DNA of 64,000 nucleotides from Candidatus Terraquivivens tengchongensis (lineage in GTDB: Archaea; Thermoproteota; Nitrososphaeria_A; Caldarchaeales; Wolframiiraptoraceae). Numbering within the stretch: the stretch's first letter is position 1; every line of letters starts with the position of its first letter. The notes below the pieces were generated by a model that saw only the letters and a list, made by a program, of their open reading frames with translations, was not told the DNA's origin and made no database searches. Location: assembly GCA_023261845.1 (NCBI GenBank), contig JALNJZ010000003.1, positions 64,001 through 128,000 on the forward strand, written 5' to 3'. Position numbers and translations under genes: made by a program. Shown here piece by piece: positions 11,773-55,421 of this stretch.

Positions 11773-11880
11773 AACCAAGATACAAAATCGAAAATGGATG
11801 TTACATCAAACTATCAGCGGATACGAATTACCTGAATGCACGTCAATTAGGAAAGTTTTCATATAATGTAGAAAATTAAG

Positions 11881-11972
11881 TGGACCGGCGGGGATTCGAA
11901 CCCCGGACCTCGCGCAGTCTAGCCAAAAGCCGAGGTCGCCAGGCGCGCGATCTTCCGCTGATCTACCGGCCC
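11881..11972 (-). tRNA. trnA-GGC: tRNA-Ala(GGC) with 20-nt canonical 37/38 BHB intron (11917-11936)
   Basis: Acceptor GGGCCGG/CCGGTCC with G3·U70; anticodon stem CGCGC/GCGCG; loop CT-GGC-G; central BHB helix CTGG/CTAG; T-loop TTCGAAT; TTTAAA box about 30 nt upstream. Confidence 0.93.
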
Positions 11973-12546: not shown

Positions 12547-14448
12547 TTATCCAAAAAGCGATATGGTTTCAAGGTTCTTTGGCATGTATATGTTTGCCGT
12601 AACGATCTTCGAAGCAGACTCTGCTAGGCTCTCAATAGCCTTGGCCTCACCATGTAATAAGATTACGTTCTTCGGCTTCGGTGTGAACTTCTTCAGATAG
12701 TTCAATAGTTGTTGTCTACTGGAGTGTCCCGAGAATCCATCTACTTTTTCTATACGCAACTTAATGTTTAAGACTTCGGTCTTACCCTTCTCGTCTATAA
12801 ACGACACTTCTCTTATGCCTTTAAGCAACTTTCTGCCCAGTGTTCCCTCTACTTGGTAGCTGACGAATATCAACATGTTCTTTTCATCGTTTGCAAACTC
12901 CTTCAAATAATTCAGTACCGGTCCGCCTTCTAACATTCCTGACGTGGAAATCACGATGGCAGGTCCTTTAGCATTTAGTGCCTCATCTCTTTGCGAATGA
13001 CTCCTTACTGGCGTGAAGTAGTCTGACATGAACACATTCCCTTGAGATTCTATAACGTTCTGCAATTCTTGGGAAACGTATTCGGGAAAGGCTGTATATA
13101 TTGCGGTTGCCTCTATGACGAGACCGTCTAAGTAAATGGGCACCTCTGGTATGTTCTTTGAATTTAGAAGGTCGTTGAGGACGAGCATTATCTCTTGAGC
13201 CCTACCGACAGCTGGTACGGGTATGAGCACCTTCCCGCCCGACTCTACCGTCTGCTTTATGTAATCGGCTAGCAATGCCTCGCTTTCTTCTCTGGTAAAC
13301 GGTATTGGTGTCGCACCATAAGTGCTCTCCATCATCAGAGTCTCTGCCCTTAAGAATTTGTGCGCACATGCATCCAGCGTCCTAGTCTTCTCAAACTTGA
13401 AGTCGCTAGTGTAAACGACGTTGTATAACCCCTCACCTATGTGTATATGAACGACTGAAGAGCCAAGGATGTGTCCTGCGTTGTACATAGTTACCCTTAT
13501 GTCAGGCGTTATGCTTGTAACGCTACCATACTTAAGGGTTATAGTATGCTGTACTGCAGTTTTTACGTCATTCTCATTATATAATGGAAATATCCCCTCT
13601 TTTTCTGCGACATTAATGAAGTCTAGCTGTTCCATCGTCATAAGGGGTAACGTCGGCTCAGTACAGTAAACAGGCCCCCTGTAACCGTACTTAAACAGAT
13701 ATGGTATGGCGCCGGTGTGGTCGAGATGCGCATGCGTTGCTATCACCGCATCGAGCTCATCAAAGATTGAAGGATAAGCATCAAACCTGGGTAGCATATC
13801 GAGCTTGCTCGTAGCGCCGACGGCAATACCGCAATCTAGCAATATCTTGCTTTCATTGGTCTGGAGCAATATGGCGGACCTACCAACTTGCCTTCCGGAG
13901 CCAAGTACGCTGAGTATTACATCACTCGTTTCGAAAGTTTTTGACCCGAATACTCTTTCACCTATCGCCCGTAATATGCTGAGCCTTTTATCCGAATCTT
14001 TGTAAAGGTATTGGTTAATCTTCTCGATAGTCTTTGAGGGCATTAGCATTTTCTTTACTAACTTTACATGCCATCCTGTAGCCTTGCAAACATTCTTGAT
14101 AACCTCCCCGTTTTTGTTGGCGTTGAAATCCTTAACCTCAACTATAGCCTCACCCAACGTCTCATCAAAGAACACAGTGACATCTTCGCCGAACGTTGAC
14201 TTGAGCACGCTTTCCGCCTCTTCTTGGGGTAACCTTATCGCTGGGTCGGACCTTATGACCACGCGTTTCTTAAGTATGTTCACGAGGTCTTTTGCGATCT
14301 GATCCCTTTCCACGAACAACTCAGGATTCTTAGTATATATAGCGAGCCTTGTACCTTCGTACTCGATTCTTGTAATAGCAGCCTCTCTAGGGCTAACTAC
14401 AGAGAAGTACCTTAATATCTCAGCTCTGAGCCTATCCGCTGCACTCAA
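12547..14448 (-). CDS. fttA: KH + beta-CASP ribonuclease aCPSF1 / transcription termination factor FttA
   Basis: N-terminal KH domains, QVGRS, HAHLDH, AGHILGS, MESTYG, VGRAQE and GFSGHS; adjacent to psmB. Confidence 0.95.
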   Translation of the reverse strand: MSAADRLRAEILRYFSVVSPREAAITRIEYEGTRLAIYTKNPELFVERDQIAKDLVNILKKRVVIRSDPAIRLPQEEAESVLKSTFGEDVTVFFDETLGEAIVEVKDFNANKNGEVIKNVCKATGWHVKLVKKMLMPSKTIEKINQYLYKDSDKRLSILRAIGERVFGSKTFETSDVILSVLGSGRQVGRSAILLQTNESKILLDCGIAVGATSKLDMLPRFDAYPSIFDELDAVIATHAHLDHTGAIPYLFKYGYRGPVYCTEPTLPLMTMEQLDFINVAEKEGIFPLYNENDVKTAVQHTITLKYGSVTSITPDIRVTMYNAGHILGSSVVHIHIGEGLYNVVYTSDFKFEKTRTLDACAHKFLRAETLMMESTYGATPIPFTREESEALLADYIKQTVESGGKVLIPVPAVGRAQEIMLVLNDLLNSKNIPEVPIYLDGLVIEATAIYTAFPEYVSQELQNVIESQGNVFMSDYFTPVRSHSQRDEALNAKGPAIVISTSGMLEGGPVLNYLKEFANDEKNMLIFVSYQVEGTLGRKLLKGIREVSFIDEKGKTEVLNIKLRIEKVDGFSGHSSRQQLLNYLKKFTPKPKNVILLHGEAKAIESLAESASKIVTANIYMPKNLETISLFG

Positions 14449-16086: not shown

Positions 16087-16170
16087 GCCGGGGTACCCGA
16101 GCCTGGTCAAGGGGGTGGGCTCAAGACCCACTGGCGTAGGCCATCCTGGGTTCGAATCCCAGCCCCGGCA
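16087..16170 (+). tRNA. trnL-CAA: tRNA-Leu(CAA)
   Basis: Acceptor GCCGGGG/CCCCGGC-A; anticodon arm GTGGG-CTCAAGA-CCCAC; long variable arm; GGTTCGAATCC. Confidence 0.96.
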
Positions 16171-16355: not shown

Positions 16356-17438
16356 TTGGTGAGGAATAATATGACTGGACAAAAAGCCGGCCTACCGATC
16401 TTGAGCAAGTTTCTAACGCTTTGGATCTTCTTGGCAATGATAATCGGCATAGGCTTGGGCTATGTCTTCCCAGATATTGCTGATGTGCTGGGTCAGCTAA
16501 GCATAGGCACGACCTCCATCCCTATAGCGATAGGTCTAATCTGGATGATGTACCCGCCTCTTGCCAAGGTAAGGTATGAGGAACTTAGGAAGATAGTCAC
16601 AGCCAAGGGTTCGAAGACTATGCTTACAGAGTCGCTTATACTCAACTATCTGGTAGGCCCGTTTCTTATGTTCGTCCTTGCATGGATATTCCTCGCAGAT
16701 TACCCTGAATTCAGAAACGGCGTAATCCTAGTAGGCTTAGCAAGATGTATAGCGATGGTTATCGTCTGGAACGACCTTGCTGATGGTGACAGGGAGTGGG
16801 CTGCCATACTCGTCGCCCTGAACTCGGTCTTCCAGATTTCGTTCTATTCCGTATATGCCTACTTCTACATTACCTTCGTAAGTTCTTGGATTGCCGGTAC
16901 CGGCACGGTAGTTGATATATCCTTTATAGAGGTTGCCACATCGGTCCTCATATACCTCGGCATACCGTTCTTTGGCGGAATGATTACGCGCTTTTATTTC
17001 CTTAAAAAGAAGGGAAGGGAATGGTACGATAGAGTTCTCATACCGAAACTCGAGCCAACATCCCTCTTTGCCCTGCTGTTCACCATAGTTGTGATGTTCT
17101 CCTTAAAAGGCGAATACATAATCACGCTTCCGATGGATGTCGTAAGGGTAGCAATGCCGTTGCTTTCTTACTTCGTTATAATGTTCCTCGTATCCTTTCT
17201 GGTTGGCTACAAATCTGGTCTTGATTACAGCAGGGTCACTTCACTGGCTTTTACGGCCGCAAGCAACAACTTTGAGCTCGCGATAGCCGTGGCTGTGTCC
17301 GTTTTTGGCTTAGCCTCAAAGGAAGCCTTTGCTACAGTGATCGGCCCCTTAATAGAGGTTCCAGTGATGATCTCTTTGGTAAACGTGGCACTCTGGTTTA
17401 GAAAGCGCCTTTACGAAAAAATAAAAGCAGTCGTATAA
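16356..17438 (+). CDS. acr3: Arsenite efflux transporter Acr3
   Basis: [30 protein letters not shown] and GPLIEVPVM. Confidence 0.96.
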
Positions 17439-17660
17439 ATCCACAAAATTCAAAAACTTGTTTGGTAAGGAGTGCTAAATGTAACATAGCGTTTCGCCGT
17501 GCGCTCTGGCTAATTTGGAATCCAGATTGAAGTTTAGGATTTTCTTGAAGGTTAGCTTTGTACAAATTTCCAAAAGCTTCCCCATCATTAGAATTGTAAA
17601 GTGACGTTTTTACTATTTTAGAGTGAAATGTATAAATCAGTGTAAGTATTGTGTTAATTT

Positions 17661-17867
17661 GCGTCGTCCGGAAAAGGAGAGGCTGGCGCTAAGCAACACC
17701 TGGGGGAAGCCTCAGGTGTTGTATGCGTCGACCCATGCCCAGCGCTCCGGGGCTGCTTTGGCAGTACCTCCAAGCTGGGTATGGGTGGGAGGTGCCCGTA
17801 GGGCATCAGGGGTTAATCCATGGAGGGTGCCCTAGCAGGGAGGCCCGCCATCTCCGAAAGACGACGC
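17661..17867 (+). ncRNA. Unassigned structured RNA (~207 nt)
   Basis: GC-rich island in AT-rich flanks; terminal stem GCGTCGTC/GACGACGC; long hairpins with several G·U pairs only on the + strand; TATAAA at 17631-17636. Confidence 0.7.
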
Positions 17868-17889
17868 AATTATAATTAATTCTTGTCAT

Positions 17890-18561
17890 TTAGGCCTTTT
17901 CATATGAACCGCATGATGCGTTCTTAAGTCTCATCATTTGCTTAACAAACTCGTAATATTCCTGCGGCGACAACTCGCTAACCATTACTTCGTCAACGTT
18001 TATCACGTAGATCATGTAAAGCCTTGCGTTAAGTATCTCTTCAAGACTAACGGGCGGTTTCGTGTAGTAGAGGTCGCAGATTCTTTTAATGTAAAGTATC
18101 TCTTCCTTAGTCCTGTCCCTTGGTGGTTTTAAGAATACATGTGGCACTTGGACGATGTTATGTGGCGGCGTTCCGATGCCGAACTTTTTTGCAAAAGCGC
18201 TGTACCTAGCTATTTTGCTGGCAACCCTGGCTAAGAGATAGGTATTGGGGTCGAGTGCATGCTCAGGAGGCACGAAACCTGTCTCTATCTCGATTATGAT
18301 GTTACCATCACCTTTTACTCCATATATATCGCATGTGAGTATCTCGTTAAGCTTATGCTCAGCGTCCACCTCATATCCCTTAACGATTAGGTCGGCAGCG
18401 CAGACGACCTCCATCACGGAATGGTTTATCTTAACCATGTTGGCTTCGTATAACTTACACAATTTTTTATACACGTCGTCAAGTTTGTTTACAACTTCTT
18501 TGCCGTACTTATCGCCTATTTGCGCGATGACTTTCAAGACGTCTTCTTCGAATTTATTCAT
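17890..18561 (-). CDS. Conserved hypothetical protein with PD-(D/E)xK-like motif
   Basis: H…E…GYEVDAEH…CDIYG…IIIEIETG motif. The ORF track starts at 18708, but ATG 18561 lies about 23 nt behind an AAAAGTTTATC promoter-like element and is the more likely start. Confidence 0.65.
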   Translation of the reverse strand: MNKFEEDVLKVIAQIGDKYGKEVVNKLDDVYKKLCKLYEANMVKINHSVMEVVCAADLIVKGYEVDAEHKLNEILTCDIYGVKGDGNIIIEIETGFVPPEHALDPNTYLLARVASKIARYSAFAKKFGIGTPPHNIVQVPHVFLKPPRDRTKEEILYIKRICDLYYTKPPVSLEEILNARLYMIYVINVDEVMVSELSPQEYYEFVKQMMRLKNASCGSYEKA

Positions 18562-18742
18562 CAAAGCTGTCAAAATGCTTGATAAAGATAAACTTTTGAT
18601 AAACTCCAGAAGCCACCGCAAATAACGAATGAACTGGTTTTTAAGCTCTGGCCATAATTGTAGAGCTGCTCTATGGATTAATACCGTCTTACTACTCGTG
18701 TTAAACACTTAAAACGTGATTGATGATATTACATAACCAGAG

Positions 18743-20791
18743 ATGGCAAAAGACCCCGTGTGCGGAATGTTCGTGGAGGAGACTGATGATGCTCTAAAAA
18801 CTACCGTGAGGGGTAGAACGTACTACTTCTGCAGCGAAACTTGTCTCAAGACATTCTTGATGCCTGAGGTTGAGGTTAGAAATCTGAAAAGGATGACCAT
18901 CCTTAGCTTCGCGCTAGGAATACCTGCCCTCATGTTGACATGGTTCTTGAGCCTACCCTTACCTATACCCAATAGTCTCCTGCTATTCTTTTTAGCAACA
19001 CCGGTTCAGTTTGTCGCGGGTTGGTCTTTCTACAAGGGCATGTGGCACGCTATTAAGGTCAAGTCAGCAAACATGGACACACTTATAGCCATAGGGACTT
19101 CTGCGGCATGGCTTTACAGCACGCTAGTTACGTTCATACCTTCCGTATTTCCTGAGGGTTTATACTATGAAGTATCGGCGTTAATAATAGCATTCGTACT
19201 TCTCGGAAGATTACTCGAGCATGTTGTAAGGAGGAAGGCATCGGATGCTGTGAGGAAGCTTATGGAACTCCAACCAACCACAGCAAGAGTGCTACAGGAT
19301 GGCACCGAGACAACAGTCCCCGTCGAGAAGGTAAGGGTTGGCGACCTTTTGTTGGTTAAACCAGGCGAGAAGATACCGGTAGATGGTGTAGTCGTCGATG
19401 GTCATTCGACAGTTGATGAAAAAGTGATCACAGGTGAAAGTATTCCTGTAGAGAAGGAAGTGGGCAGCGAGGTCATAGGTGGTACGATGAACAGAAGCGG
19501 AATCCTCTTGATTAGAGCTACTAGGGTTGGAGCCGACACCACTTTATCCCAGATAGTAAGACTTGTCGAAGAAGCTCAGGCCGCACAAGCTCCGATAGAA
19601 CGTTTAGCAGATAGAGTGGCCTCCTACTTCGTTCCCGTGGTCGTGGGCATCAGCATAACCGCATTCTTAATATGGTACTTCCTTTTCAGTAATCCGCTCA
19701 CCGGTCTTACGGCATTCATAGCAGTTTTGATAATAGCTTGCCCTTGTGCCTTGGGTTTAGCGACACCGGCAGCCGTGGTGGTTGGTTTAGGAAAGGGTGC
19801 TGAAAACGGTATTTTGATAAAAGGTGGCGAAAATCTTGAAAGGGCATATAAAATAACTACCGTGGTCTTTGATAAGACGGGCACACTCACAAAAGGTGAA
19901 CCAACAGTAACTGGCATCATCCTGTTAGATGAAATGGATGAGAAAGAAGTCATGAGGCTGGCCGCATCCGCAGAGTCTGGCTCGGAGCATCCTTTAGGGG
20001 AGGCCATAATTAAGAAGGCGAAAGAACTCGGAGTAGAACCTGTCAGACCGGAAAGCTTCGAGGCAGTTCCCGGCAAAGGTATTCTGACAACCGTGAATGG
20101 AAAACGTGTAGCAATAGGCAACAGGAAATTATTCCTTTCGTTGGGTCTTGAATTATCCGAACTGGAAGAAATTTTGAGGGCACTTGAGCAGGAAGGTAAA
20201 ACGGTGTTGATAATTTCGATTGATAAAAAGCCGGTTGCCCTAATAAGCGTGGAGGACGTTCTGAAGGAGCATGCGGCCGAAGCAGTGAACCAGCTGAAAT
20301 CCATGGGCCTCGAAGTCGTAATGCTTACGGGTGATAACGAAAGGACGGCGAAGGCTATAGCAAAGCAGCTGGGGATCGAACACGTGGTGGCAGAGGTCTT
20401 GCCTTCTGAAAAGCTCGAAAGCATAAAAAAGCTTCAGACGAAGGGAAAGATCGTGGCGATGGTCGGTGATGGCGTGAACGATGCTCCGGCGCTGGCTCAG
20501 GCCGACGTAGGAATCGCCATAGGTAGTGGAACAGACGTTGCGATAGAGACTAGTGGTATAGTCCTGATAAGAGAGGACTTAAGAGATGTCGTGGCAGCGA
20601 TAAAGCTCAGCAGAGCTATGATGCGCAAGATAAAGCAGAATCTTTTTTGGGCTTTCGCTTACAACATGGCGCTTATACCGGTGGCCGCCATAGGCTACCT
20701 CAACCCTATACTGGCCGGTATAGCCATGGCTCTGAGCTCGGTCAGCGTAGTCACGAACTCTCTTACGTTAAAAAGGCTGAGACTAAGATAA
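18743..20791 (+). CDS. copA: Cu(I)-type P1B ATPase with N-terminal YHS/TRASH domain
   Basis: DPVCGM…YYFCSETC, CPCALGLATP, DKTGT, SEHP, GDGVND, YN and MALSS. Confidence 0.93.
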   Translation: MAKDPVCGMFVEETDDALKTTVRGRTYYFCSETCLKTFLMPEVEVRNLKRMTILSFALGIPALMLTWFLSLPLPIPNSLLLFFLATPVQFVAGWSFYKGMWHAIKVKSANMDTLIAIGTSAAWLYSTLVTFIPSVFPEGLYYEVSALIIAFVLLGRLLEHVVRRKASDAVRKLMELQPTTARVLQDGTETTVPVEKVRVGDLLLVKPGEKIPVDGVVVDGHSTVDEKVITGESIPVEKEVGSEVIGGTMNRSGILLIRATRVGADTTLSQIVRLVEEAQAAQAPIERLADRVASYFVPVVVGISITAFLIWYFLFSNPLTGLTAFIAVLIIACPCALGLATPAAVVVGLGKGAENGILIKGGENLERAYKITTVVFDKTGTLTKGEPTVTGIILLDEMDEKEVMRLAASAESGSEHPLGEAIIKKAKELGVEPVRPESFEAVPGKGILTTVNGKRVAIGNRKLFLSLGLELSELEEILRALEQEGKTVLIISIDKKPVALISVEDVLKEHAAEAVNQLKSMGLEVVMLTGDNERTAKAIAKQLGIEHVVAEVLPSEKLESIKKLQTKGKIVAMVGDGVNDAPALAQADVGIAIGSGTDVAIETSGIVLIREDLRDVVAAIKLSRAMMRKIKQNLFWAFAYNMALIPVAAIGYLNPILAGIAMALSSVSVVTNSLTLKRLRLR

Positions 20792-53945: not shown

Positions 53946-55421
53946 TTGAATCAAAGCTTTGGTATGAACAATATACCGCTAAAGAAGTTAGATGAAAACG
54001 TATGGGTTATAGACAAGAACTTCAAACAAGGTATGAGAGTACCTGTTACGATTTTCGCATCTGAAAAACTGCTCCAAAAAATGACGCAAGACAGAACGCT
54101 TGAGCAAGGTGCAAACGTTGCTATGCTTCCAGGCATATACAAAGCCAGCATAGTACTCCCCGACGCACACGAAGGATACGGATTTCCTATAGGAGGTGTG
54201 GCCGCCATGGATGCAACCGATGGTGTCATATCTCCGGGAGGTGTGGGATACGACATCAATTGCGGCGTTAGGCTAATGGTAACAAACCTTACCGTAAAGG
54301 ACGTTATGCCCAAGCTAAAGGAGCTAGTAGATACGATCTTCAGGAATATTCCTGCAGGTCTTGGAAGCAGGCGGAAGGACTTTAGGGTGAGCCCTTCAGA
54401 CCTTGATAGGATAGCAATAGAGGGCGCGCGTTATGTTATAGAAAGGTATGGCCTCGGGTGGAACGAGGACATAAAGCACATAGAGGAGGAGGGCGCTTTA
54501 GAAGGAGCGGACCCTTCAAAAGTCTCACCAACCGCTAGGAGTAGGGGCGAGTCCCAGATAGGTACACTCGGCAGCGGTAATCACTTCCTTGAAATACAGA
54601 GGGTTGACAAAATATTCAACCGCGAAGCTGCGAAGATCATGGGAATAAATCACGAGAATCAGATAACGGTCTTGGTCCATACAGGCAGTAGGGGTTATGG
54701 CCACCAAATATGTAGCGATTACCTAAAGGTCATGGAAAGGGCGGCCCACAAATATGGAATCAGGCTACCTGACAGGGAGCTTGCGTGCGCACCTGCCAAC
54801 ACGCCCGAGGCTGATCAGTACCTTAAAGCATTCACATGCGCAGTTAACTTCGCGTTCGCAAACAGGCAAGCAATTAGCCACTGGGTTAGACAGAGCTTCG
54901 AGGAGGTGTTCAAACAACCAGCAGAATCCCTTGGAATGAAGCTCGTGTACGATGTAGCCCATAACATCGTGAAGCTCGAGAAGCATATGGTAAACGGTGA
55001 GACAAAGGATGTTTACGTTCACCGAAAAGGAGCGACGAGGAGCTTCCCCGCTGGACATCCGCTCGTGCCTAGCGATTACAGAAGCATAGGACAGCCCGTA
55101 ATAATTCCTGGCTCGATGGGAACAGCAAGCTGGCTTTTGCTAGGGAATCCAAAGGCTATGGAACTGAGCTTCGGTAGCACGGCTCACGGAGCTGGAAGAG
55201 AAATGAGCAGGGCAGGAGCAAAAAGGCGTTATACGGGTCTAACTGTTATAAAAGAGATGGAAAACAAAGGCATAATCGTCAGGAGCGACAGTACGGAGAC
55301 GTTGATAGAAGAGGCCGACGAAGCATACAAGAACGTTGACGAGGTGGTTGAGGTAAGCCATGCAGTAGGGATAGCGACAAAAGTGGCCAGATTTGTTCCT
55401 ATAGGCGTAATTAAAGGTTAA
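53946..55421 (+). CDS. rtcB: RNA-splicing ligase RtcB
   Basis: LPDAHEGYGFPIGG, GYDINCG, GSGNHFLE, HTGSRG, HRKGATR, PGSMG and HGAGR. Confidence 0.97.
   Translation: MNQSFGMNNIPLKKLDENVWVIDKNFKQGMRVPVTIFASEKLLQKMTQDRTLEQGANVAMLPGIYKASIVLPDAHEGYGFPIGGVAAMDATDGVISPGGVGYDINCGVRLMVTNLTVKDVMPKLKELVDTIFRNIPAGLGSRRKDFRVSPSDLDRIAIEGARYVIERYGLGWNEDIKHIEEEGALEGADPSKVSPTARSRGESQIGTLGSGNHFLEIQRVDKIFNREAAKIMGINHENQITVLVHTGSRGYGHQICSDYLKVMERAAHKYGIRLPDRELACAPANTPEADQYLKAFTCAVNFAFANRQAISHWVRQSFEEVFKQPAESLGMKLVYDVAHNIVKLEKHMVNGETKDVYVHRKGATRSFPAGHPLVPSDYRSIGQPVIIPGSMGTASWLLLGNPKAMELSFGSTAHGAGREMSRAGAKRRYTGLTVIKEMENKGIIVRSDSTETLIEEADEAYKNVDEVVEVSHAVGIATKVARFVPIGVIKG

Follow-up and report, generated by a model that had tools for sequence, protein, structure and literature searches.

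The bulge-helix-bulge motif (BHB), that is, a four-pair helix between two three-nucleotide bulges, is cut within its bulges by the tRNA-splicing endonuclease, and a ligase then closes the excised piece into a circle, as set out in the parts of two archaeal studies on which we draw (PMC7714728; PMC12558985). In the portion of the literature consulted, the BHB-made circles are tRNA introns, ribosomal RNA (rRNA) intermediates, one piece of a 5' untranslated region and a permuted signal recognition particle (SRP) RNA, and 5S rRNA, whole tRNAs and omega RNAs are listed there as circles that form independently of a BHB. Here we analyse a locus in a 64,000-nt stretch of contig JALNJZ010000003.1 (positions 64,001 to 128,000, forward strand; hereafter the window) of Candidatus Terraquivivens tengchongensis, whose genus belongs to the Wolframiiraptoraceae of the Caldarchaeales (synonym Aigarchaeota) according to the part of PMC9246946 considered, and conclude that it is probably a dedicated gene for a new family of BHB-made circular noncoding RNA (ncRNA), which we call the ring RNA. 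Its closest described relatives in kind are the circular permuted SRP RNA of Thermoproteus tenax, likewise the product of a stand-alone gene in a thermophilic archaeon that is processed at a splicing-endonuclease site and ligated into a stable functional circle (as summarized from Plagens et al. 2015, PMC4731332), and the pre-16S and pre-23S rRNA circles, for which the excerpts of Schwarz et al. (2020, PMC7714728) and PMC12558985 describe the same succession of long leader-trailer stem, BHB, cleavage by the endonuclease EndA and ligation.

The ring RNA gene corresponds to a GC-rich block at window 17659-17869 on the + strand (GC 0.52-0.575 versus 0.36-0.46 in the flanks). The + strand folds at -123.2 kcal/mol, compared to -85.9 ± 4.95 kcal/mol for 200 dinucleotide shuffles, none of which equalled it (z -7.53), and the - strand fold is weaker (z -5.36). 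A first-pass annotation, made by a model from the letters alone, had already noted the GC-rich block and its helices, all of which we recovered, and had proposed an RNA of ~207 nt held together by a closing stem. The stem is real, but the apparent internal loop between this outer stem (P1) and the next one (P2) turned out to be a CGGA/UCCG helix that leaves AAA 17673-17675 and AAA 17857-17859 bulged on opposite strands, so that the closing stem belongs to the BHB processing site of a precursor and the mature RNA is predicted to be a 184-nt circle rather than the linear molecule (Table 1). All 39 copies that we found in class genomes (see below) have the order outer helix (h), 3-nt bulge, four-position helix (H), 3-nt bulge and inner helix (h'). 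With G-U pairs allowed in h and h', h measures 3 bp in a single copy and 6-13 bp in the other 38, H has 4/4 pairs in 32 copies and 3/4 in the other 7, and h' has at least 2 bp in 27/39, the canonical hBHBh' motif being one with at least two Watson-Crick pairs in h and in h'. In the window copy h has 10 bp and h' 2 bp, the second of which is a G-U pair.

The letters of the bulges and of the predicted ligation junction are constrained too. The 5' bulge reads A-N-A in 39/39 copies, and the 3' bulge is AAA in 19, AAU in 8, AAG in 7, ACA in 2 and AAC, AGA and AGG in one each, so that position 2 in the 5' bulge and position 3 in the 3' bulge vary freely. The splicing endonuclease is taken to cut after the second bulge nucleotide, and a cut there would remove both of these positions from the ring. 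A symmetric cut anywhere in the two bulges yields a 184-nt ring, and the coordinates 17675-17858 presuppose the cut after the second nucleotide; across the 39 copies the predicted rings are 153-194 nt long. Ligated, the sequence reads YCC-G-A-A/A-GGR (the slash marks the joint), and the predicted junction tetraloop, to which H contributes its final base, the 3' bulge its first two and the 5' bulge its final one, is GAAA in 35 copies, GAGA in 2 and GACA in 2. A single YCC covaries with each of two GGR triplets (alignment columns 12-14 and 18-20), which is explained if this YCC forms H in the precursor and P2 in the ring; in H, the A/G position and its U/C partner occur as AU 16 times, GC 5 times and GU once (n = 22). 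The resulting CC-GAAA-GG hairpin is the one sequence-conserved feature of the ring: outside it almost no sequence is conserved, the loops that close the arms vary in sequence, and the conserved letters total ~24 bits, too little for a specific pattern search unless complementary stems are required as well. From these patterns, selection would act on the ring form, and the shape of the RNA, rather than a guide sequence, seems to matter.

A joined molecule of the predicted kind was found in an RNA library. We compared contigs from four public runs, one RNA library (X15) and three DNA runs, with window 17400-18800. In the metatranscriptome X15, a 214-nt contig spans 17673-17856 and joins 17856 back to 17673, thus going back 184 positions; four letters (AAAG) at the joint fit either side, and the predicted joint 17858/17675 lies inside this ambiguity. 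The length of 214 nt equals 184 + 30, exactly as for a k = 31 assembly of a 184-nt ring. By contrast, the circular joint is absent from the contigs of all three DNA runs, one of which (X1) gives a single colinear piece across the whole stretch. Two mismatches to the window show that the X15 contig derives from a closely related strain. X15 contigs do not cover 17400-17672 or 17857-18066, uncovered parts that prove nothing, and the contig depths (ring contig, 109.6; contigs of the neighbouring gene, 3.4 and 4.9) are unfit for ranking expression.

The genome also encodes the enzymes that such a pathway would use. Two proteins with a tRNA_int_endo domain (PF01974; 105.3 and 61.5 bits; 189 and 192 aa) would fit, as expected, the two-subunit enzyme of TACK archaea, and RtcB, whose gene is not linked to that of the ring RNA, is the presumed circularising enzyme. 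When the whole genome was scanned for strict BHBs (outer helix of at least 8 bp, 3-nt bulges, 4-bp Watson-Crick helix, inner helix of at least 2 bp, interior of 40-3500 nt), nearly all of the 237 matches had interiors of ordinary GC, and just two had GC-rich interiors (0.64), namely the ring RNA and the 16S rRNA stem, in which an 18-bp outer helix surrounds 1606 nt. The latter (G000:C12:90995-92643, - strand) is a canonical BHB with H = CCAC/GUGG, from which a pre-16S circle of 1606 nt is predicted. Taken together, biogenesis of the ring RNA as a BHB-made circle is well supported.

Table 1. Features of the ring RNA locus, in window coordinates
Feature	Position	Strand	Details
Archaeal promoter	17624-17638	+	purine-rich GAAA resembling a B recognition element (BRE) 17625-17628; TATA box TATAAA 17631-17636
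Outer helix h (P1), 5' strand	17659-17668	+	UUGCGUCGUC; pairs with 17860-17869; predicted discarded 5' 'exon'
BHB helix H, 5' strand	17669-17672	+	CGGA; 4 bp with UCCG 17853-17856
5' bulge, predicted 5' cut site	17673-17675	+	AAA; A-N-A in 39/39; back-joint of RNA contig here
Predicted mature circular RNA	17675-17858	+	184 nt; register in repeated AAAG ambiguous by at most 4 nt
P2, 5' strand	17676-17683	+	GGAGAGGC; pairs with 17847-17855; cap in circle = tetraloop G17856-A-A/A17675
Arm P3	17684-17730	+	6-bp base, internal loop, 13-bp hairpin 17693-17722 with GAAG loop
Arm P4	17731-17786	+	13-bp stem 17731-17743/17774-17786, internal loop, CUGC-UUUG-GCAG apical hairpin
Arm P5 region	17791-17846	+	hairpin 17791-17807 and another that is less clearly delimited
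BHB helix H, 3' strand	17853-17856	+	UCCG; UCC reused in P2 of circle
3' bulge, predicted 3' cut site	17857-17859	+	AAA; A-N-N in 39/39; joint within range
Outer helix h (P1), 3' strand	17860-17869	+	GACGACGCAA; predicted discarded 3' 'exon'
Convergent neighbour, PD-(D/E)XK-fold protein	17890-18561	-	223 aa; conserved two-gene arrangement with the RNA
RtcB RNA ligase gene	54105-55418 (G000:C5:118105-119418)	+	PF01139, 578.8 bits

In the mechanism that we propose, the BRE/TATA promoter would drive a short precursor of ~210-240 nt, whose ends, judging from sequence and covariation, pair in a 9-10-bp stem followed by CGGA/UCCG and the two 3-nt bulges to give hBHBh'. The motif, the presence of the enzymes and the junction all point to cleavage of both bulges by EndA and to ligation of the ends of the inner piece by RtcB, which would leave a 184-nt ring as product and the tiny flanking 'exons' as by-products. 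The ring would then refold such that the UCC of the former BHB pairs with the second GGA into P2, with the GAAA tetraloop formed at the ligation junction, and P2 together with the three long tetraloop-capped arms P3, P4 and P5 would surround a four-way junction. A circular fold of the ring indeed has a P2/P3/P4/P5 four-way junction (-102.6 kcal/mol), with GGAGA 17676-17680/UCUCC 17851-17855 within P2, and in other genera the P5 region is a single long arm. The junction builds a conserved tetraloop-capped helix, which suggests the ring as the final product. Readings of the loops as K-turn, loop E, tetraloop-receptor or tRNA-like elements were judged by eye, and none was consistent between genera; a rolling-circle open reading frame was ruled out by eye from UAA and UAG triplets within the ring.

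The architecture is supported by comparison with homologues. BLASTN retrieved a full-length copy from 6/6 same-genus genomes at 85-89% identity with unalignable flanks, the edges of conservation coinciding exactly with the terminal stem, and only two short chance-like matches from 34 other relatives. RNAalifold on the seven genus copies gave 74 pairs, 10 with a compensatory change, and a covariance model built from them (R1) found full-length matches in 14/35 genomes of the family. Compensatory changes affect 7/9 pairs of the terminal stem among 14 sequences and 8/9 among 11. In the 11-sequence model-fitted alignment, 62/74 pairs show a compensatory change (16/19 in P3, helices 3-6; 13/13 in P4, helix 7; 16/18 in P5, helices 9-11) and 94.7% of cells are paired versus 64.2% in shuffles (0/500 as high) and 39-43% in slid controls, figures that are somewhat inflated because this alignment was fitted to the structure. 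The same architecture, in which the terminal stem P1, a conserved internal loop and P2 lead to three long arms ending in stable tetraloops, emerged independently from the genus-level MAFFT alignment and from single-sequence folds of each genus; between families, MAFFT alignments misregister arm P3. A pseudoknot between 17764-17772 and 17821-17830, which the first-pass annotation had thought possible, finds no support, as its partners pair in 82.5% of cells, a value equalled by 500/500 shuffles, and show no compensatory change.

Because the RNA gene lies between two convergent genes, an ACR3/SBF-type transporter gene (16356-17438, + strand) and that of the 223-aa protein, it requires a promoter of its own. 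The TATAAA at 17631-17636 is located 25-30 nt ahead of the first base of the processing stem, as the earlier annotation had stated, and the upstream promoter block is near-identical in 7/7 genus copies; in other genera GAAA and an A/T box likewise precede the RNA copies. T-runs occur downstream of the terminal stem in most copies. We infer from these elements that the RNA is its own transcription unit, and its start and stop positions would follow from them. The host genome (1.22 Mb, 14 contigs) is 99.4% complete and holds the block in a single copy, and each relative has one at the orthologous site. ARAGORN predicts a 93-nt tRNA-Ala(GGC) at 11880-11972 (- strand) that the Rfam tRNA model did not report at gathering score, and its length suggests an intron and thereby another substrate for the same splicing enzymes. 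An aCPSF1/FttA-type beta-CASP ribonuclease with KH, metallo-beta-lactamase and beta-CASP domains is encoded 3 kb upstream (12547-14448, - strand); aCPSF1/FttA is the archaeal factor for transcription termination and RNA processing, and its placement near the RNA gene is probably coincidental.

No known RNA family accounts for the ring RNA. Across the whole window, Rfam cmscan at gathering score reported a tRNA at 16087-16170 and nothing else, a scan of 17500-18000 in linear form at E ≤ 10 gave no match on it, and at homologous loci no family was assigned to the RNA at gathering score (6 loci) or at E ≤ 1 (5 more). The models for RNase P, SRP and 5S RNAs (RF00373, RF02357, RF01857, RF00001) do not match it, the absence of a match to type-T RNase P (RF02357) carrying little weight as this model was positive in no genome. 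Canonical archaeal RNase P RNA (165.9 bits), SRP RNA (120.1 bits), 5S rRNA (91.4 bits) and 16S rRNA are all encoded elsewhere in the genome, in line with the earlier remark that the RNA lacks features of RNase P and SRP RNA. C/D guide RNAs (boxes RUGAUGA and CUGA) and H/ACA guide RNAs (an ACA following every hairpin) were rejected on the boxes in the 39 rings: UGAUGA is present in just 3/39, and CUGA (0-2 per ring) and ACA (0-7 per ring) are irregular. Rfam gave a single snoRNA match (17 bits, E 2.1), which is on the opposite strand and not within the RNA. A literature search of article texts, supplements aside, found no description of the RNA. We therefore regard the family as new, and the stand-alone structured ncRNA gene proposed at the outset is borne out by its promoter, its fold and the absence of an Rfam match.

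To place the RNA phylogenetically we use the class, which consists of one order with 76 species genomes (genus labels g1, g2, g4-g9 and g14). The protein encoded next to the RNA occurs in 48/76 genomes and the RNA in 39 of those 48, with 7 copies in g1, 3 in g4, 7 in g5, 12 in g2, 7 in g6, 2 in g14 and 1 in g8. These homologues are conserved, syntenic and covarying, and the arrangement of promoter, processing stem and cut sites persists in several genera of Caldarchaeales, which represent two or more families. The RNA lies tail-to-tail with the protein gene in 38/39 genomes from 7 genera, the exception being G073, in which RNA and protein are on separate short contigs. Our first-look genome searches were lossy (3/8 g5 and 1/14 g2 genomes, as compared to the 7 and 12 found later by protein-anchored searches), and BLASTN with a g6 copy as query matched only in g6 and in G051. 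The 28 class genomes without the protein gave no RNA match in unbiased searches, which were lossy and sampled kin that are not independent, and in other lineages a GC-rich island downstream of the protein gene was seen in none of 20 loci. None of these searches proves that a genome lacks the RNA.

The outer neighbours of the RNA-protein pair differ by genus, with ACR3 and a Cu-ATPase in g1 and the 16S rRNA gene in g4 and g2. In these two genera the RNA gene is divergent from, and ~300 bp away from, the 5' end of 16S rRNA (L021 196-1203, L025 1-1113 and L020 1-186, all - strand), such that the promoters of two highly expressed stable RNAs stand back to back, an arrangement not seen in the genus of the window. 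In G051, which alone in its family has the pair, the place directly upstream of the nuclease-fold gene is taken by an RNase P RNA gene (157.1 bits; L052 1369-1659, - strand). The ring RNA copy on this 2.8-kb contig resembles those of g6, so that the contig may be mis-binned.

The 223-aa neighbour has no Pfam or NCBIfam family and no PDB relative by sequence, and the ESM Atlas lists it as a hypothetical protein only. Its AlphaFold 2 model (pLDDT 96.6) has a core (residues ~45-200) with the restriction-endonuclease-like PD-(D/E)XK fold, preceded by an N-terminal helical hairpin and followed by a C-terminal alpha/beta addition. Foldseek matches are weak (best E 1.5e-3) and almost all are PD-(D/E)XK nucleases; VIA-align gave Z scores of 9.9 (3dnx), 9.3 (2okf, XisH-like), 8.8 (1y88) and 7.2 (NucS). 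Residues E69, D79, E92 and K117 are invariant in 46 sequences. This large archaeal family (loci L031-L203) comprises 2612 database proteins, all annotated as 'hypothetical', in 241 clusters at 50% identity, and among its named records are ones from Nitrosopumilales, Nitrososphaeraceae, Bathyarchaeia and Caldarchaeales. In one g2 genome there is a further, broken copy of the nuclease-fold gene (G043:C26:64040-64369), which covers residues ~40-150 and is interrupted by a TGA and a TAG. A functional link between RNA and protein is suggested because the pair stays together while its outer neighbours change.

Several observations weigh against a dedicated circular RNA gene with a linked protein partner. 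The circular junction is seen in one contig of one metatranscriptome, from a strain with two differing positions, contigs reveal neither ends nor strand, and DNA can occur in RNA libraries. As h' is 1 bp in 12/39 and 2 bp in 14/39 copies (G-U allowed), and all 7 g5 copies have an A.G pair at one end of H, some copies are relaxed rather than canonical BHBs; the part of PMC7714728 at hand credits the (αβ)2 endonucleases of TACK archaea with tolerance of relaxed motifs. The family of the neighbour is far wider than the RNA (131/301 sampled phylum genomes): no RNA was detected beside the protein in g9 (0/6) or g7 (0/3), and a descriptor that found 10/10 positives matched at 0/42 loci, of which 33 lie in other families of the phylum and the remaining 9 in g9 and g7. 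At 80 named loci it gave two true matches, both in Terraquivivens MAGs with near-identical copies (L124 and L125), no true one at the other 78, and two further low-GC chance matches. Moreover, the 3' ends of the RNA and protein genes overlap in several genera, and this alone could also preserve their adjacency. Finally, no target or ligand can be read from the ring, because only its helices and the junction hairpin are conserved.

How do other explanations fare against the same data? The functional form could be a linear RNA of ~207 nt closed by the terminal stem, in which case the circular contig would reflect the assembly or some minor side product: the linear fold is very stable, the terminal stem covaries and the joint appears in just one RNA-library contig. 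We regard this as unlikely, since the stem ends in an exact BHB in 39/39 copies, the P1 sequence varies freely while H and the bulges are fixed, the joint falls exactly within both bulges, and the conserved junction positions yield a GNNA-capped P2 that would be purposeless in a linear molecule. A similarly low likelihood attaches to a cis-antisense role, in which convergent transcription or a 3' trailer regulates the nuclease-like gene and the structure stabilises or terminates the transcript. Such a role would suit the tail-to-tail order in 38 genomes and the overlap of the protein's last codons with the RNA gene in several genera, but an antisense trailer needs far less than a precise excision motif and covarying helices over ~150-190 nt, and in the window the genes do not overlap at all (the stem ends at 17869 and the neighbour's stop codon starts at 17890).

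Less probable still is a circularly permuted version of a known housekeeping RNA that linear covariance models miss. The SRP RNA of Thermoproteus (as reported in the part of PMC4731332 used here) provides a precedent, and our Rfam scans covered the unrotated sequence only; against this stand the canonical RNase P, SRP, 5S and 16S RNAs, all located elsewhere in the genome, and the lack of even a partial local cmscan match (window at E ≤ 10; five homologous loci at E ≤ 1). The miniature inverted-repeat transposable element (MITE) entertained in the first-pass annotation, or any other mobile element with terminal inverted repeats, has next to no likelihood: the 10-bp terminal inverted repeat that invites it covaries as an RNA helix, no target-site duplication was seen in the flanks, and the block occurs once per genome at the same site beside the same gene across genera.

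A gene for a BHB-made circle therefore remains our preferred reading, and it is instructive to set it beside the described systems, with the caveat that the published ones are represented by parts of the respective papers. The T. tenax circle is a known SRP RNA with a permuted gene, whereas the ring RNA matches no family and a canonical SRP RNA is encoded elsewhere. The ring RNA shares its AAA/AAA bulges with the genome's own 16S stem, yet pre-rRNA circles are transient and reopened, in contrast to a ring whose junction builds a conserved tetraloop-capped helix. Excised tRNA introns, both archaeal ones and the metazoan tricRNAs (PMC4536317), depend on the same enzymes and motif, and there too the excised piece is the circle. 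Unlike them, the ring RNA has no tRNA host: its 'exons' of ~14 nt and ~10 nt plus trailer carry no conserved sequence, and the excised part holds all conservation. The circular C/D box sRNAs of hyperthermophiles (PMC12558985) are also circular ncRNAs of thermophilic archaea. The ring RNA differs from these by the absence of C/D boxes, its much larger size, its four-way junction and its predicted dependence on a BHB. C/D box sRNA circles are small, abundant and made by ligase only.

As to function, we tentatively propose, at somewhat less than even likelihood, that the ring serves one or more proteins as a scaffold or ligand resistant to exonucleases and heat, the PD-(D/E)XK-fold neighbour being the best candidate partner. 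That it is the RNA subunit of a hitherto unknown ribonucleoprotein (RNP) with this protein, acting as an RNA-scaffolded or RNA-directed nuclease, or is itself catalytic, its internal loops and four-way junction docking in the manner of the hairpin ribozyme, is doubtful. A protein scaffold is more likely than a ribozyme, a permuted known RNA or a cis-antisense role.

Archaeal BHB circles are known mainly as introns, rRNA intermediates and one repaired permuted SRP RNA. Here, an entire gene would be devoted to the ring alone, with ligation itself creating a conserved tetraloop-capped helix, which points to archaeal circular RNAs as designed end products, beyond by-products, and adds a large structured RNA family with strong covariation. 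Wolframiiraptor gerlachensis, a member of the family, is cultivated according to the part of PMC9246946 consulted, and if it carries the RNA gene, the prediction is directly testable in a cultivated organism. Should the RNP or catalytic reading be true, Caldarchaeales would use the tRNA-splicing machinery to make a purpose-built circular cofactor.

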